DNA of 64,000 nt from Chiloscyllium plagiosum (lineage: Eukaryota), in assembly GCF_004010195.1 (NCBI RefSeq), contig NC_057718.1, positions 97,637,300 through 97,701,299 on the forward strand, given 5' to 3'. Shown here piece by piece: positions 1,440 to 56,038 of this stretch. Both the position numbers and the translations under genes were made by a program. Under the pieces are notes generated by a model, which ran no database searches, had not been told where the DNA came from, and saw only the letters and a program-made list of their open reading frames with translations. Position 1 is the stretch's first letter. The number at the start of each line of letters is the position of its first letter.

Positions 1440-1575
1440 TCTCCGAAGCCCCCTTCCCTCCATCCCACATTCCTGATGAAGGGCTTAAACCTGAAACATC
1501 GACTCTCTTGCTCCTTGGATGCTGCCTGACCTGCTGTGCTTTTCCAATGCCACACGTTTCGACTCTGATCTCTGA
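1440..1575 (+). mobile_element. Penelope-type pLTR fragment with decayed hammerhead core
   Basis: CTGATGAAGGGCTTAAACCTGAAACATC followed by GATGCTGCCTGACCTGCTGTGCTTTTCC, the same family as 9508-9595. Confidence 0.7.
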
Positions 1576-1840
1576 AGGTAAGCGATATGAGAGATGAGAC
1601 AATTGCAAAGCCCAACATGGTAGGTCATTGTGCTGGTTTAAGGCACATCAAATTCAAGACTTTAATATTATACAATTGTCAGGTAAATGTTAACAATCAA
1701 TTGTACTGACGCAAGAGGAACGTAACTGTTCAAGCTGATTTACCTCGTAAAATTAAATCTGTATCATTCCCAGAAATGACTGTCCCAGTTAAGTGATAGT
1801 ATTGTTTCCTTCGTTACCTGAGATCACTCTGCCTTTACTT

Positions 1841-2060
1841 GTAGCTCAGTGGTAGCACTTAGACCTCACAGTGAGAAGGCCGTCATTACTCTCGGGGTTT
1901 AAGGCTTCAATCCGGCCTGACACTACAAGTGCAGGACTGACTGAGTGCTGCAGTGTCAAAAGAGCTCTCTTATGGATGAAATGTTAAATGGAGGTTCCAT
2001 CTGCATATAAAAGGCCCCATCATGTCATTCAAAAAGGGGTAAGTATGTCCATATCAGTGA
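1841..2060 (+). mobile_element. old tRNA-derived SINE (Deu/SacSINE-like) 5' fragment
   Basis: GTAGCTCAGTGGTAGCACT head and degenerate body; a similar head occurs at ~29295-29480. Confidence 0.45.
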
Positions 2061-9376: not shown

Positions 9377-9595
9377 AGGCGAAAGACAGGACCGCAGATG
9401 CTGGAGATTAGAGTTGAGATTGTGGTGCTGGAAATGCACAGCAGGTCAGGCAGTATCCGAGGAGCAGGAGAGTCGACATTTCAGGCAAAAACCCTTCATC
9501 AGGAATAGTCCTGATGAAGGGCTATTTGCCCGAAACGTCGATTCTTCTGCTCCTCGGATGCTGCCTGACCTGCTGTGCTTTTCCAGCACCACACT
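9377..9595. mobile_element. palindromic Penelope-derived mini-element (family A) with hammerhead cores
   Basis: 15-bp TSD CAACAATAATTCAGT (9362-9376, 9596-9610). Inverted arms around ATAG; + strand CTGATGA-AGGGCTATTTGCCC-GAAACGTC. Confidence 0.85.
9507..9543 (+). ncRNA. minimal type I hammerhead ribozyme motif
   Basis: Helix I AGUC/GAUU, core CUGAUGA (9511-9517), helix II GGGC/GCCC, GAA plus palindromic ACGU plus C17. Activity untested. Confidence 0.7.
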
Positions 9596-9903
9596 CAACA
9601 ATAATTCAGTCCCCAGCCAAGAGCTCTAAATTGAGCAGGCCAGTGCTGAGAATTCTTCAAGAAAGTACTTTCCAGAGTCCTTGCCTTGACTCAACAAAAG
9701 AAAAATCATGACCCTTTGTTTGTGTGTTCCCCACGTAGACCAGCCAACCCAGCCACACCCTCATCCTCAAAGCCACGTGCCAACAGGCCTGACCCTCATA
9801 TGATCCTTAATTGTTTGCGAAGACCAAAAGCAAGAGGAGCAGATGATGTGACCAAATATGAGACACCTTTTGTTAGTTAACTATCATCCTTTAAAGATCT
9901 GTT

Positions 9904-23965: not shown

Positions 23966-24789
23966 TCTCCTTGCGATAAAAGCTAATATCATAACCCGTT
24001 TAATTTTTGTTCCTGTGCTTTGTCAGGTCTCATACTTGTCCACATTGACCTTCATCTGCAAAAGGTCACGGGCCATTACTCTGTCTCTGCTCCTCTGTAA
24101 CTGCCTACTCCAATCGCATAACTCATTGCCCCTCCTCACTTAGCATCACCATTTATCCTCTAACCTTCCTTTCAAGATTTAATTGATGTGGCAAAAACAG
24201 TCACGGATCCTGGTAGACATCACTTTTCAAATTCACCTAGCCAGGCCCATTCCCCTACTCTATTACTCCACATATGCCCTGACTAATGCACCAAACCTAC
24301 ACATCCCTGAACATTATGGGCAATTTAGCTTTGGCCAATTCACCGTCTTCTGAGAGTCGGTGTGGACTTGTTGGGCCAAATGGCCTGTTTCCACACTATA
24401 GCGATTCTATGATGACTTCAATATTGTCCGTTTTAACTCCTCCTCCCCCCTGTCGCGAGCATAAAAATAATCATCTTCCAGCTCCTCTCAGTACTGAAGA
24501 AGAGCCATACTTGACTTGAAACGTTGACTCAGTTTCGCTCTCCACAGATGCTGCCAGACCTGCTGAGATTCTGACTCTGTCAGCTCTTGCCGCCATTGTT
24601 GACAGACAATATTCAAGACACATTTCAAGGCTCTGAAGAAAGATGAGGTTGCCACAGTCTTACTAGATGATAGAGTTGTTCTCTCATTCGACAGAGAGAG
24701 AGAGACAACTGGTAAAACAAACAAGGGCAAGATTTATACAAGGAACAGTAGAGCCTTATGTAGTGTGTTAGAATGGATACACCTAGGGG

Positions 24790-42115: not shown

Positions 42116-42338
42116 TTGGACAAAGTCAGAAGTCACACAACACCAGGTTACAGTCCAACAGGTTTATTTGAATTCACAGGCTTTCAGAGTGCTGCTCCTT
42201 TATCAGTTTATTTCACGTGATGGAGGAGCAGCACTCTGAAAGCTTGTAATTTCAAATAAACCTGCTGGACTATAACCTGGTGTCATGTGACTTCTGACTT
42301 TGTCCACCCCAATCCACCACCAGCACCTCCACGTCATG
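42116..42338. mobile_element. palindromic mini-element (family B), older copy
   Basis: GGACAAAGTCAGAAGTCAC...CTTTCAGAGTGCTGCTCC is mirrored by GGAGCAGCACTCTGAAAG...GTGACTTCTGACTTTGTCC. Hammerhead cores decayed. Confidence 0.8.
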
Positions 42339-45708: not shown

Positions 45709-45780
45709 CTCTCCGGTGGGGAATTGAACCCCGGACTCCCACGTGACAGGCAGGGATACTAACCACTATACTACCAAGGA
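45709..45780 (-). pseudogene. tRNA-Asp(GTC) pseudogene
   Basis: 72 nt TCCTTGGTAGTATAGTGGTTAGTATCCCTGCCTGTCACGTGGGAGTCCGGGGTTCAATTCCCCACCGGAGAG. C-A mismatches in the acceptor and T stems and several CpG transitions. Confidence 0.85.
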
Positions 45781-46184: not shown

Positions 46185-47130
46185 GATGTAGGTTTGCTCG
46201 CTGAGCTGGAGTGTTCATTTCCAGACGTTTCATCACCCTACTAAGGAACATCTTCAGTGGGCCACAGGCGAAGCAATGCTGAAAATTCCTACTTTCTATT
46301 TATATGTTTGGGTTTCTTTGGGTTGGTAATTTCATTTCCTGTGGTGATGTCATTTCCTGTGGTGATGTCATTTCCTGCTTTTTTTCTCAGGGGGTGGTAG
46401 ATGGGGTCTATCTCGATATGTTTGTTGATAGAGTTCCGATTGGAATGCCATGCATTTAGGAATTCTCGTGTGTGTCTCTGTTTGGCTTGTCCCTGGATGG
46501 ATGTGTTGTCCCAGTCAAAATGGTGTCCTTCCTCATCCATATGTAAGGATACTAGTGAGAGAGGGTCATGTCGTTTTGTGGCTAGTTGGTGGCTAGTTTT
46601 CTGCCTGTTTGTCCAATGTAGTGTTTGTTACAGTCCTTGCATGGTATTTTGTAAATGACATTAGTTTTGCTTGTTGTCGGTATAGAGTCTTTCAAGTTCA
46701 TTAGCTGCTGTTTTAGTGTGTTGGTGGGTTTGTGAAAGACACTAAACAGGCAACAAGCAAAACTAATATCATTCACAAAATACCGTGCAAGAACTATAAC
46801 AAACACTACATTGGACAAACAGGCAAAAAACTAGCCACCAAGGATACATGAACATCAACTAGCCACAAAACGGCATGATCCTCTGTCACTAGTATCCTCA
46901 CATACGGATGAGGAAAGACACCACTTTGACTGGGACAACACATCCATCCTGGGACAAGCCAACCAGAGACACACACGAGAATTCATGGAAACATGGCATT
47001 CCAACCGGAACTCAATCAACAACCACATCGGGTTAGACCCCATCTACCACCCCCTGAGAAAAAGAACAGGAAATGATGTCACCACAGGAAATGACATTAC
47101 CAACCCAAAGAAACCCAAACTTGTCATTGA
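46185..47130. mobile_element. Penelope-like element with inverted GIY-YIG arms
   Basis: Minus arm ~46185-46735 (NVIYKIPCKDCNKHYIGQTGRKL; HHFDWDNTSI...REFLNAWHS). Plus arm ~46738-47130 covers the same segment. Hammerhead-like CTGAAGA...GAAACGTC on the minus strand at ~46215-46260. Confidence 0.9.
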
Positions 47131-48997: not shown

Positions 48998-49212
48998 GGC
49001 AAAGTCAGAAGTCACAGGACCACAGGCTATAATCCAACAGGTTATTTAAATTCACAAGCTTTCAGAGCACTGCTCCTTCATGAAAACTCCGCCTGACAAC
49101 AGAGCAGCACTCTGAAAGCTTGTGATTTTAAATGAACCTGTTGGACTATAACCTGTTGCCCTGTGACTTCTGACTTTGTCCACCCCAGTCCAACACCGGA
49201 AACTTCACATCA
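48998..49212. mobile_element. palindromic mini-element (family B), older copy, inserted in a CR1 tail
   Basis: CAAAGTCAGAAGTCACAGG...AGCTTTCAGAGCACTGCTC is mirrored by GAGCAGCACTCTGAAAGCT...GTGACTTCTGACTTTG. Confidence 0.8.
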
Positions 49213-51514: not shown

Positions 51515-51962
51515 GGGGGAAGTGATGGCCTAGTGGTATTAACACTGGACTCTTATCCCAGAGAGGAGACAGTAAGGTCTGCAGATGCTGGATTTTCCTG
51601 CTCCTCGGATGCTGTCTGACCTGCTGTGCTTTTCCAGCAACACACTCTCAACTCTTACCCCAGAGACACAGGTAATGTTCTGGGGACCTAGGTTTGAATG
51701 CCTCCACAGCGGATGGTGCAATTTGAATTCAGTAAAAATCTGGGATTGAGGGTATATGAAAACCATTGTTGATTGTCAGGAAAAACCCATCTAGTTCACG
51801 AATGTCCTTTAGGGAAGGAAACTTCTATCCTTACGTGGTCTGGCCTATATGTGACTCCAGACCCATAATAATGTGGTTGACTCTTAACTGCCCTCTGGGC
51901 AATTAGGGATGGGCAATAAATGCTGGCCGAGCCAGCGATGCCCTCATCCCGTGAATGAATAA
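51515..51962 (+). mobile_element. second tRNA-derived SINE family, interrupted at 51564-51650
   Basis: A-box-like TGGCCTAGTGG, B-box-like GGTTTGAATGCC, tail GGGCAATAAATGCTGGCC...(TGAA)n. Confidence 0.65.
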
Positions 51963-52189
51963 GAAAACTAAGTAAAACAAAGAGCTGCAGGTGCCAGAAA
52001 TCTGGAGCAGAAACTGCTGGAGAAACTCAGCCGGATTGGCATCATCTGTGCAGAGAGAAAGCAGAGTTAACATTTCGAGTCTGATATGACTCTTCTTCAG
52101 AATGCTCCCTTTTGGATAACAATCCGATTTCCTCTGCAATTCGTCGATTTTGGCTCCACCACACTTTCGGAAAGTGCATTCCAGATTGT

Positions 52190-52753: not shown

Positions 52754-52957
52754 TGATTTGGAGATGCCAGTGTTGGACTGGGGTGTACAAAGTTAAAAAT
52801 CACACAACACCAGGTTATAGTCCAACAGGTTTAATTGGAAGCACACTAGCTTTCGGAGCGATGCTCCTATCACCTGATGAAGGAGCGTCGCTCCGAAAGC
52901 TAGTGTGCTTCCATTTAAACCTATTGGACTATAACCTGGAGTTGTGTGATTTTTAAC
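52754..52957. mobile_element. palindromic mini-element (family B) with hammerhead core
   Basis: 12-bp TSD GTCAAATTTTCA (52742-52753, 52958-52969). Inverted arms GTTAAAAATCACACAAC...GGAGC and GCTCC...GTTGTGTGATTTTTAAC. Confidence 0.88.
52870..52906 (+). ncRNA. minimal type I hammerhead ribozyme motif (family B)
   Basis: CAC-CUGAUGA (52874-52880)-A-GGAGC guc GCUCC-GAA-AGCU-A-GUG. Palindromic AGCU helix III and CAC/GUG helix I. Confidence 0.72.
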
Positions 52958-53517
52958 GTCAAATTTTCAGCTATTCTCCCTAAATGCTCAATTAACAAAG
53001 ATTCCACTGCAGTCAAATCATCCATTGCATGTGAATTGCTATGGGCCATTTGCACTGACATGTTATAAAAGGGCCTTTCTTAAACATCTTCAAAATAATT
53101 AAAAGCATCTGGGAATGTTCAATGAGTGGTGAAAAGGTTTCACCATGACAAATGATCCCAACCCATGATTTAACATGAGAAAAATAATTTTGCATTTTAT
53201 GGCAAATTAGTCAGTCTACAAACTGGACAGTACTTAATAGTTTCAGTATCTTCCTTCTGATATCATTCTTTTCAAGCAGTTTGTTTCCCATTTTCCCCAT
53301 TTAATGGTCATTCTTCTTTAATCTTGTGCGCTGTTCCTCCAAATTTCTCCTTTTCTTCATCCAGATATGCATTCCACACATAATCTTCATCCTGTCTTTC
53401 CCATTGTTGAAAGTGACATATCCACAATCTCAGATCTTCACGATCCAAGATCAATTTCCTCTAACTTCAATTTGCTTTGCAAACACACTCCCCACAACCA
53501 TTTTCTTTTCAGGTCTG

Positions 53518-54178
53518 ATTTGGAGGTGCCGGTGTTGGACTGGGGTGTACAAAGTTAAAAATCACACAACACCAGGTTATAATCCAACAGGTTTAATTAG
53601 AAGCACCGGCTTTCGGAGCGCCGCTCCTTCATCAGGTGGTTGTGGAGGACACAATTGTAAGGCACAGAATTTATAGCAAAAGTTTACAGTGTGATGTAAC
53701 TGGAATTATACATTGAAAAATACCTTGATTGTCTGTTGAGTCTTTCATCTGTTTGAATACCATGATAGTTTCACTTCTTTCATGTGTAAATCACAAAGCT
53801 TTTTTAAAAGTTGGATTCTCAGGTTAACTGTAACAATTGGTGTTAGCTAGACAATATGTTGAAGGTGGAGAAAGTGAGGTCTGCAGATGCTGGAGATCAG
53901 AGCTGGAAATGTGTTGCTGGAAAAGCGCAGCAGGTCAGACAGCATCCAGGGAACAGGGGAATCGACGTTTCGGGCATAAGCCCTTCTTCAGGAATGGGGA
54001 AAGTTTGTTTTTATCTTAGCCTGCTGGACAAACTTTCCCCATTCCTGAAGAAGGGCTTATGCCCGAAACGTCGATTCCCCTGTTCCCTGGATGCTGCCTG
54101 ACCTGCTGCGCTTTTCCAGCAACACATTTCCAATATGTTGAAGGTGTTAGCCCCCTGTGTTCTCTGTGTGATTTTTAA
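53518..54178 (-). mobile_element. family B Penelope-type insertion (pLTR + 3' UTR + short inverted end), hosting a family A palindrome
   Basis: 13-bp TSD CTTTTCAGGTCTG (53505-53517, 54179-54191). Minus strand CACCTGATGAAGGAGCGGCGCTCCGAAAGCC; inverted TGTGTGATTTTTAAC at the far end. Confidence 0.82.
53868..54130. mobile_element. young palindromic mini-element (family A) with hammerhead cores on both strands
   Basis: 16-bp TSD CAATATGTTGAAGGTG. ~104-bp arms with one mismatch and a 19-nt spacer. CTGAAGA...GAAACGTC at 54045-54072 (+) and 53991-53964 (-). Confidence 0.92.
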
Positions 54179-54859
54179 CTTTTCAGGTCTGGTCGCATTT
54201 TGAACTCTGTCTTTGGTCTTTGCAGTTGAGCAGTTACATTTCTGATGTGACAGGTAGCCAGAATGCATCTGCATTACACACCAATTATAGCCATGTGTTC
54301 CTGAACAGGCTGTCTAGCTAATGAGCTCATTTCCCTTTGTTGTGGTGTCTTAGGTTATTATCTGTATTTACTGTGGATTTAATAACTTAGATATTGATAG
54401 GAACCGCATGGAGGGTTTCAGCTAGTTTGATTGTTAAAAGCAAGGATTGGAAATTTAAAATTGAGTCTTTGCTTGACAGGGAGCCCATGAAGGTCAGTGA
54501 ACACATGAGGGATAGGTGAATAGAACATGGTGCCAGTCAGGACACAGGCAACAAGCAATTCAAACCTCAAGTTTGAGTGCAACTTTAATAATTATTGGAA
54601 CACTACAGTTGAAGAATTCTGAGCTATTCTGTCCCAAGCACTTTTGTCACAATGGTTCCACTGCAGTCAAACCATCTATTGTGTGTAAATTGCTATGGGT
54701 CATTTGCACTGACGTGTTATAAAAATGGCCTCTCTTAAATGTCTTCAAAATAATTAAAATGTAAGTCATTTTGGAGGTCATTATATTTGCAGAATTTTCA
54801 GCCATTCTGCCTGAGACTATATACAAGACTGGTCAGTGTATGTACGGAATGATTGGAAC

Positions 54860-55956: not shown

Positions 55957-56038
55957 GTAGTCGTGGCCGAGTGGTTAAGGCGTTGGATTAGAAATCCATT
56001 GGGGTTACCCAGCGTAGAGTCGAATCCTGCCAACTACG
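55957..56038 (+). pseudogene. tRNA-Ser(AGA) pseudogene
   Basis: 82 nt GTAGTCGTGGCCGAGTGGTTAAGGCG...TAGAAATCCA...GAATCCTGCCAACTACG. T arm and B box disrupted (AGAGTCGAATCC), acceptor-stem mismatch. Confidence 0.88.

Follow-up and report, generated by a model that had tools for sequence, protein, structure and literature searches.

The 64,000-nucleotide stretch of Chiloscyllium plagiosum DNA that we analysed (the window) contains a 263-bp insert between perfect 16-bp repeats, as the initial annotation had reported. The repeat CAATATGTTGAAGGTG stands exactly at 53852-53867 and again at 54131-54146, and it extends on neither side. The 16-mer is present only once in all four of the other copies of the surrounding repeat (family B, described below) that cover the insertion site. 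These copies represent empty sites, so we regard the repeat as a true target-site duplication (TSD).

We mapped the insert onto a natural copy, L023 (positions 1501-1900, reverse strand), which served as a ruler (the reference): C3 of the hammerhead motif is at 277, the predicted cut follows 304, and the end of the element is at 400. The 36 nt that follow the left TSD (53868-53903, minus strand) map to reference 365-400 and are present on the left arm only. The left arm itself (53904-54008, minus strand) is an antisense element end, 5'-truncated at reference 260; together with the 36 nt it is 96% identical to L023 over 141 nt, and 99-100% identical to the closest copies. The right arm (54028-54130, plus strand) is a sense element end that stops before those last 36 nt, at reference ~364, and in a BLAST comparison with L023 the 19 nt between the arms (54009-54027, plus strand) start at reference 241. 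The insert therefore reads antisense from 400 to 260 and then sense from 241 to 364. The joint between these 19 nt and the left arm is blunt, and the 28-mer spanning it is single in the genome.

This mapping changes the reading of two parts of the hairpin. Because the left arm reaches 400, the supposed unpaired leader is the last 36 nt of the element; because the right arm begins at 241 and the left at 260, the 'loop' is parent sequence carried by the right arm alone. The arm, loop and leader layout of the initial annotation otherwise stands, with measured values of 105 nt for the palindrome arms (53904-54008 and 54028-54132, one mismatch), 19 nt for the spacing and 36 nt for the leader; the final 2 nt of the right palindrome arm fall within the TSD. 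What had been missed was the identity of the leader as the tail of a Penelope-like element (PLE), and likewise the pile-up of 5' ends described below. As RNA, the hairpin has a predicted folding energy of -222.7 kcal/mol (z = -25.8 versus 200 shuffles).

Both arms carry the hammerhead core noted earlier, CUGAAGA-A-GGGC-uuau-GCCC-GAAACGUC. A motif scan places the minimal type I motif at 53960-53995 on the minus strand of the left arm, with C3 at 53991, and at 54041-54076 on the plus strand of the right arm, with C3 at 54045. By hammerhead numbering, the predicted cuts follow 53964 and 54072, and the A residues at 53995 and 54041 are the likely +1 positions. The description of the insert as a pLTR plus an inverted pLTR was also correct. 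On these alignments, the insert consists of two ends of a Neptune/Nematis-type PLE, each 5'-truncated, placed head to head. It is a single, recent insertion, still young, and very probably an ordinary product of PLE integration.

The surrounding sequence is itself a Penelope insertion, older and of a second family (family B; 53505-54191, minus strand), recognised by a 13-bp TSD (53505/54179) and by homology to 52871-52957. In this host insertion, a long tailed arm that has a hammerhead motif of its own is accompanied by a tail-less inverted stub of ~12-15 nt, a mirror-image extreme of the same two-arm design.

The parent element is known through overlapping partial copies. Upstream of the arm these encode a reverse transcriptase (RT; KPADKGG and RYIDD, containing DKG and YIDD), a CX4CxxC linker and a GIY-YIG endonuclease, and IIYCIRCSRCGLLYIGET is likewise found in them; upstream sequence in L023 itself leads into the GIY-YIG C-terminus. 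EN+ PLEs have been described as an RT with a DKG motif followed by a C-terminal GIY-YIG domain with CCHH cysteines between GIY and YIG, the Neptune and Nematis clades having a CX2-5CxxC motif in the RT-EN linker (PMC8557442). The linker here reads CNRRRCNTC in L096, L104 and L298, which fits Neptune/Nematis. Pfam matches to GIY-YIG (E=2e-4) and RVT_1 (E=3e-3) both fall below the curated cut-offs, and PDB gave no sequence match. Walking overlapping copies reached the start of the ORF and found no intact full-length copy. At one joining locus, L200, the tail continues into the ATG that opens the N-terminal ORF known from L361, ~40 nt beyond the tail; the arm thus doubles as the 5' leader of that ORF. 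Arm sequence is thus present both after the EN C-terminus and before the ORF start (L200/L361), as in a pLTR.

Insertions of EN+ PLEs have been reported to carry an inverted 5'-truncated copy, a 30-40 bp tail at one end and a TSD (PMC3846280; PMC8557442; PMC2377424), and this combination is standard for the group. Our insert has it: a head-to-head inverted pLTR, a 36-nt tail on one arm, a TSD and variable truncation. It is unlike the published insertions in that the body has been wholly lost, leaving a 263-bp near-perfect hairpin.

Head-to-head insertions across the genome

A further difference from described EN+ PLE insertions is the very high copy number. A 34-mer from the arm core has 27,910 exact matches genome-wide, and a pattern search found 6,439 tight palindromes, in which the two cores lie within 14 nt of each other (the control gave 0). 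A sample of 642,913 bases, made up of the window, the adjoining 200 kb and 40 evenly spaced 10-kb pieces, contained 29 head-to-head pairs among 134 arm matches, 26 of them spanning at most 352 bp (TSD status aside). Extrapolation from these counts puts head-to-head insertions on the order of 100,000 genome-wide. Many long inverted PLE insertions (L011, L016, L017 and L020 among them) contain assembly gaps, and the assembly therefore probably gives too low a count of long palindromes.

The initial annotation had offered two readings of this architecture, (i) a non-autonomous ambisense ribozyme hairpin element, and (ii) a stereotyped abortive integration product, and had named a comparison of central junctions as the means of refuting the first. 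An element of the first kind, which would be transcribed and retrotransposed as a unit while its ambisense ribozymes process the RNA, should be found at many loci with an identical junction. The junction of the 53852-54146 insert is unique, with one exact match in 3.56 Gb, and 50 sampled loci (the first 50 of the 6,439 tight palindromes) have 32 junction types. Some junctions do recur in this sample, namely AAT/ATT (12/50), AATCATT (5/50) and AATT (4/50), and palindromic junctions are present in RNA reads (12 reads at one joint), as a mobile hairpin would predict. However, the recurrent junctions lie on 8, 3 and 4 arm haplotypes, respectively, and the commonest lies either way round with respect to the tail (8:3 in the 46 of the 50 palindromes that have one tail). 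Recurrence is explained by 2-nt microhomology at a common 5' end, and the same junction on different subfamilies means that it is rebuilt at each insertion. The predicted absence of the ribozyme fold from read-through RNA and the scarcity of arms beginning at the cleavage site, both described below, also count against a transposing hairpin. We consider this reading largely refuted and scarcely credible. The second reading fares better: integration is stereotyped, but 'abortive' is only partly apt since the insertions were completed and are TSD-flanked. Non-LTR retrozymes (bioRxiv 10.64898/2026.07.22.740005; PMC7229834) are similarly non-coding and PLE-derived with type I hammerheads, but are described as head-to-tail tandems with same-strand ribozymes, whereas the arms here are head to head and form no unit family.

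After removal of duplicates, and with a minimum of 88% identity and a TSD of 10 bp or more, we assembled 77 TSD-verified head-to-head insertions, and 76 of them have a tail on exactly one arm. A recount that included short stubs gave 71/71 within 110 TSD-defined insertions, a set that overlaps the first; the other 39 comprise 15 solo arms and 24 unclassified insertions. Family B follows the same one-tail rule (10/10). The 50 tight palindromes divide into 46 with one tail, three with two and one with none; of the three two-tailed cases, one was re-scored as single-tailed and another is L200. The TSD mode is 14-15 bp, compared with 8-10 bp in the rotifer PLE examples described. The samples here and below are biased toward young, core-bearing arms, mostly on contig C1.

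The two arms of an insertion nearly always belong to the same subfamily. At each of 11 non-CpG subfamily sites they are discordant at 0-3 of ~72 loci, where 15-28 would be expected for independent templates; background arm discordance is 1.8%. This concordance points to one template for both arms. The few differences at two sites are polarised: at site 310, five pairs have C on the tail arm and T on the non-tail arm and none has the reverse (in a query-biased set), and at site 315 the split is 3 vs 0, so a second template appears to be used sometimes. The site 310 pairs (L007, L009, L011, L027 and L159) always have C on the tail arm and T on the other, as if a source with two non-identical pLTRs had given one arm each. 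Separately, at L019:1501-1721 a tailed antisense arm directly adjoins an antisense segment from the first codons of the ORF, which is a template jump linking far-apart regions of the element.

Neither arm is consistently the longer. The tail arm reaches further 5' in 20 of 76 insertions and the non-tail arm in 21, with 34 equal to within 3 nt and one unresolved. We refer to the tail end as site A and to the start of tail-less arms as site B. Among 33 inverted tail arms, four consist of the tail alone (tail-only stubs); they end at 371, 372, 379 and 389, and two of them abut site B. Solo site-B arms with TSDs make up nine of the 110 TSD-defined insertions, and their existence marks site B as a primary start.

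The 5' hotspot and the hammerhead motif

Arm 5' ends pile up at one place. We examined 75 arms among the first matches listed to the 34-mer core, anchored on 276-309, and 54 of them stop at reference 267-276, with a mode at A273; ~5 would be expected from the upstream truncation rate. Solo arms with TSDs show the hotspot too, so it needs no partner arm. By hand count of the listed rows, 26 non-reference bases precede A273 among the first 100 matches listed (20 G, 4 A and 2 T), and removal of five palindrome junctions and one duplicate leaves G in 15/20 (p=2e-5 against 0.28). A script count of solo arms, which overlaps this set, found G before A273 in 11/15, before 274 in 0/8 and before 275 in 2/6. 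Family B, with 7,481 exact matches, ends 5-9 nt before its core and shows the same preference, again by hand count: G precedes the peak A in 10/12 arms, and in 6/8 of those lacking a partner arm (p=0.008). An unambiguous extra G on the non-tail arm is present at 2/50 junctions (L198 and L211). At full-length L1 junctions, an extra G marks copying of the cap (PMC11702581).

The sequence context of the hotspot, CTCATTCC, also resembles a transcription start. It matches the initiator consensus YYANWYY. The Drosophila Penelope promoter is reported to be internal to the pLTR, with an Inr and a DPE (PMC2377424); a DPE-like motif at ~+26..+33 here bears a loose resemblance to Drosophila RGACGTGY, and we did not count it as evidence. 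A splice acceptor at the hotspot was rejected, as no AG lies immediately upstream. The transcript is likely to have A273 as +1, with the hammerhead at +1 to +36, site B at ~+92-97, site A at +128 and the ATG at ~+168. A cap-derived C at the cDNA end would supply the 2-nt microhomology of the commonest junction. In the 53852-54146 insert the arm starts lie 13 and 32 nt before +1, which puts it in the ordinary truncated minority; it would stem from a downstream or read-through pLTR.

The RNA reads gave no confirmation of this start. Run X19, a poly(A) single-cell library sampled at ~2% that cannot map a start, gave 2,065 reads on the natural copy with no start or end peak. Depth drops fivefold upstream of 273, mirroring the DNA copies, and palindromic joints are covered by 12 and 5 reads. 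The loose-end consensus at A273 opens with A, not with the C that a cap G predicts (agreement 0.39). Run X20 gave 0 reads on the natural copy.

The initial annotation had assigned the motif to the minimal type I hammerheads of Penelope pLTRs, and its core features agree with those described in PMC4209133. In sequence it has the core, the extra nucleotide after A9, the G10.1-C11.1 pair and the palindromic 15.2-16.2, which makes it a PLE minimal hammerhead, and it shares with the published motifs a loopless palindromic helix III and a short helix I. It differs in helix II, which is 4 bp here versus 7-8 bp in the Schistosoma motifs, and in its location, which is probably the first 36 nt of the transcript, ahead of the ORF. 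The same source reports little in vitro activity for minimal hammerheads of the PLE type, and dual opposite-strand motifs 100-700 bp apart were already described there (PMC4209133). A covariance-model search, which the initial annotation had suggested, gave no hammerhead match with Rfam at gathering thresholds; its only matches were two tRNA-like ones. In a two-copy cofold the minimum-energy structure is not the active dimer, which we treat as weak evidence.

The proposal that folding during transcription could act as a switch was not supported by modelling. In an equilibrium model without kinetics, the pairing probability of stem II is <0.0001 at 5/5 prefix lengths on each strand, while the same type of folding gives 0.96-1.0 for RNA beginning at reference 273. 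Given the head-to-head layout, read-through transcription entering from either flank produces the antisense arm before the sense arm. The hammerheads are thus predicted to be passengers, silenced by the hairpin in read-through RNA. Arms templated by cleaved RNA were sought as well: among the first matches listed, 2/100 arms begin at the predicted cleavage site (reference 305), against four spread over 12 positions upstream, which is no convincing excess. The low count agrees with the anole PLE, in which hammerhead cleavage is protein-assisted and not needed for insertion, and uncleaved RNA serves as template (PMC11167929). If the transcript begins with the hammerhead, as is likely, a cut at +32 would strip it of its cap.

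A proposed model for integration

In L1 twin priming, two target nicks prime cDNAs that are joined through microhomology while the TSD is kept, and the two cDNAs cover different RNA segments. The best explanation of the insert, and one that we consider quite likely, is a PLE insertion reduced to two truncated ends that did not move as a hairpin but was twin-primed at the target. Both target strands would be nicked ~15 bp apart by the protein, which is probably dimeric; cDNA synthesis would start at site A from one nick and, from the other, at site B, ~35 nt earlier on the same RNA, and the two cDNA 3' ends would then be joined by end joining, often with 1-2 nt of microhomology. We hold this series of double nick, A/B priming on one RNA and end joining to be fairly probable. 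Most arms in the genome are probably short because cDNA synthesis is primed within the 5' pLTR and then runs off the capped end of the template RNA, whose first base would be the first base of hammerhead helix I. The broader proposition, that PLEs integrate by obligatory two-ended priming in which one RNP uses two sites 35 nt apart and most cDNAs run off the cap, is one toward which we lean only slightly.

The comparison with L1 extends to priming from two nicks, microhomology joining, the TSD and the extra G at run-off ends (the last from PMC11702581), but the cDNAs here usually overlap almost fully, which yields a palindrome. Such near-full overlap would need strand displacement or two repeat copies. 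The closest biochemical parallel is Poseidon of Anolis carolinensis (Frangieh et al. 2024, PMC11167929), for which in vitro work describes cleavage and extension of both strands, two internal RT starts flanking the tail, the use of uncleaved RNA as template and a dimer model. We see the same bounding of the tail by two starts. The anole element is of a different clade, and its ORF starts inside the hammerhead rather than past the tail as here; the accessible part of that study offers no explanation of inverted pairs or of a 5' hotspot.

We weighed this model against two other routes to a PLE integration product. In the first, the 3' end of a tail-primed cDNA snaps back and copies itself to site B, and asymmetric centres reflect later deletion. 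Self-priming of this kind is a published suggestion for PLE inverted repeats (PMC3846280), and snap-back has been seen for R2 cDNAs, its nearest precedent (PMC11371274). Fold-back accounts for the one-tail rule and for arm concordance, which fits it and twin priming equally. It needs the tailed arm to reach furthest 5', however, and the non-tail arm is the longer in 21/76 insertions, the 53852-54146 insert among them; the 20:21 symmetry could also be obtained by later loss of the centre from perfect palindromes. The solo site-B arms with TSDs, the unambiguous extra G on the non-tail arms of L198 and L211, and the tail-only stubs, which lack overlap with the partner arm, all argue against it. 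Either-arm reach and tail-only stubs are hard to obtain from fold-back, barring later deletion of the centre, and follow from twin priming. We therefore regard fold-back as unlikely.

The remaining alternative concerns the hotspot: the insertion would be a PLE product whose pile-up reflects RT stopping at a folded or protein-bound helix I, with two RNAs priming the two arms. Such a stop is favoured by the exact coincidence of A273 with the opening base of helix I, by the protein-assisted hammerhead of the anole element (PMC11167929) and by the polarised arm differences at sites 310 and 315. Yet an RT, which travels 3' to 5' along the RNA, would meet the structure at about 305-308 and stall there, in a region with few arm ends, and neither the preference for G before A273 in solo arms, with its loss at 274 and 275, nor the initiator-like context is explained. 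With both arms nearly always of one subfamily as well, we judge RT stopping to be very unlikely. A point that weighs against twin priming with run-off at the cap is that the RNA data show no directly seen transcription start.

As a single locus, the insert is ordinary; the useful part is the class statistics. One tail, a shared template, either arm longer, tail-only stubs and an extra G at a fixed 5' end in two families yield predictions for the published in vitro system. We found no report of twin priming or of a cap-derived G in PLEs in the literature searched, outside of which lay key subscription papers and supplements, and the formation of the PLE tail and inverted repeats is described as unresolved in PMC8557442. 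If two-ended priming is obligatory, a single step would account for both the tail and the inverted repeat. Priming near the RNA 5' end would then deposit a module of ~95-128 nt with a start site and a hammerhead, and the resulting hairpins, of the order of 100,000 in number and with start sites facing outward, would be a base-level fossil record of the PLE mechanism. The counts also imply a very large source of double-stranded RNA hairpins in read-through transcripts.

Related elements in the window

The initial annotation had counted at least five occurrences of the architecture in 64 kb. This recurrence was confirmed, with palindromes in the window at 9418-9596, 42117-42306, 49000-49178 and 52792-52957, together with a long one at 46306-47120. 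TSDs flank two of them (9362/9596, 15 bp; 52742/52958, 12 bp); none was found for the older palindromes 42117-42306 and 49000-49178 or for the long palindrome. The long one is a palindromic insertion of a third PLE family, whose endonuclease end we take to be Poseidon-like; a hammerhead motif with a longer helix II adjoins it (46228-46257), and an ORF piece at 46853-47080 has no similarity to the parent PLE protein described above.

At 51557-51666 there is an older insertion of family A, in which a tail-only stub (374-400), in inverted orientation, adjoins a sense arm beginning at reference 305, the predicted hammerhead cut site; its TSD is 8 bp if exact and about 15 bp if imperfect. A further family with a hammerhead core, CUGAAGAAGAGUC/CC...GACUCGAAA, is present at 24494-24521 (plus strand) and 52073-52100 (minus strand). 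The two tRNA-like Rfam matches, at 55957-56038 (plus strand, 43 bits) and 45709-45780 (minus strand, 39 bits), are possibly SINE heads or tRNA pseudogenes.
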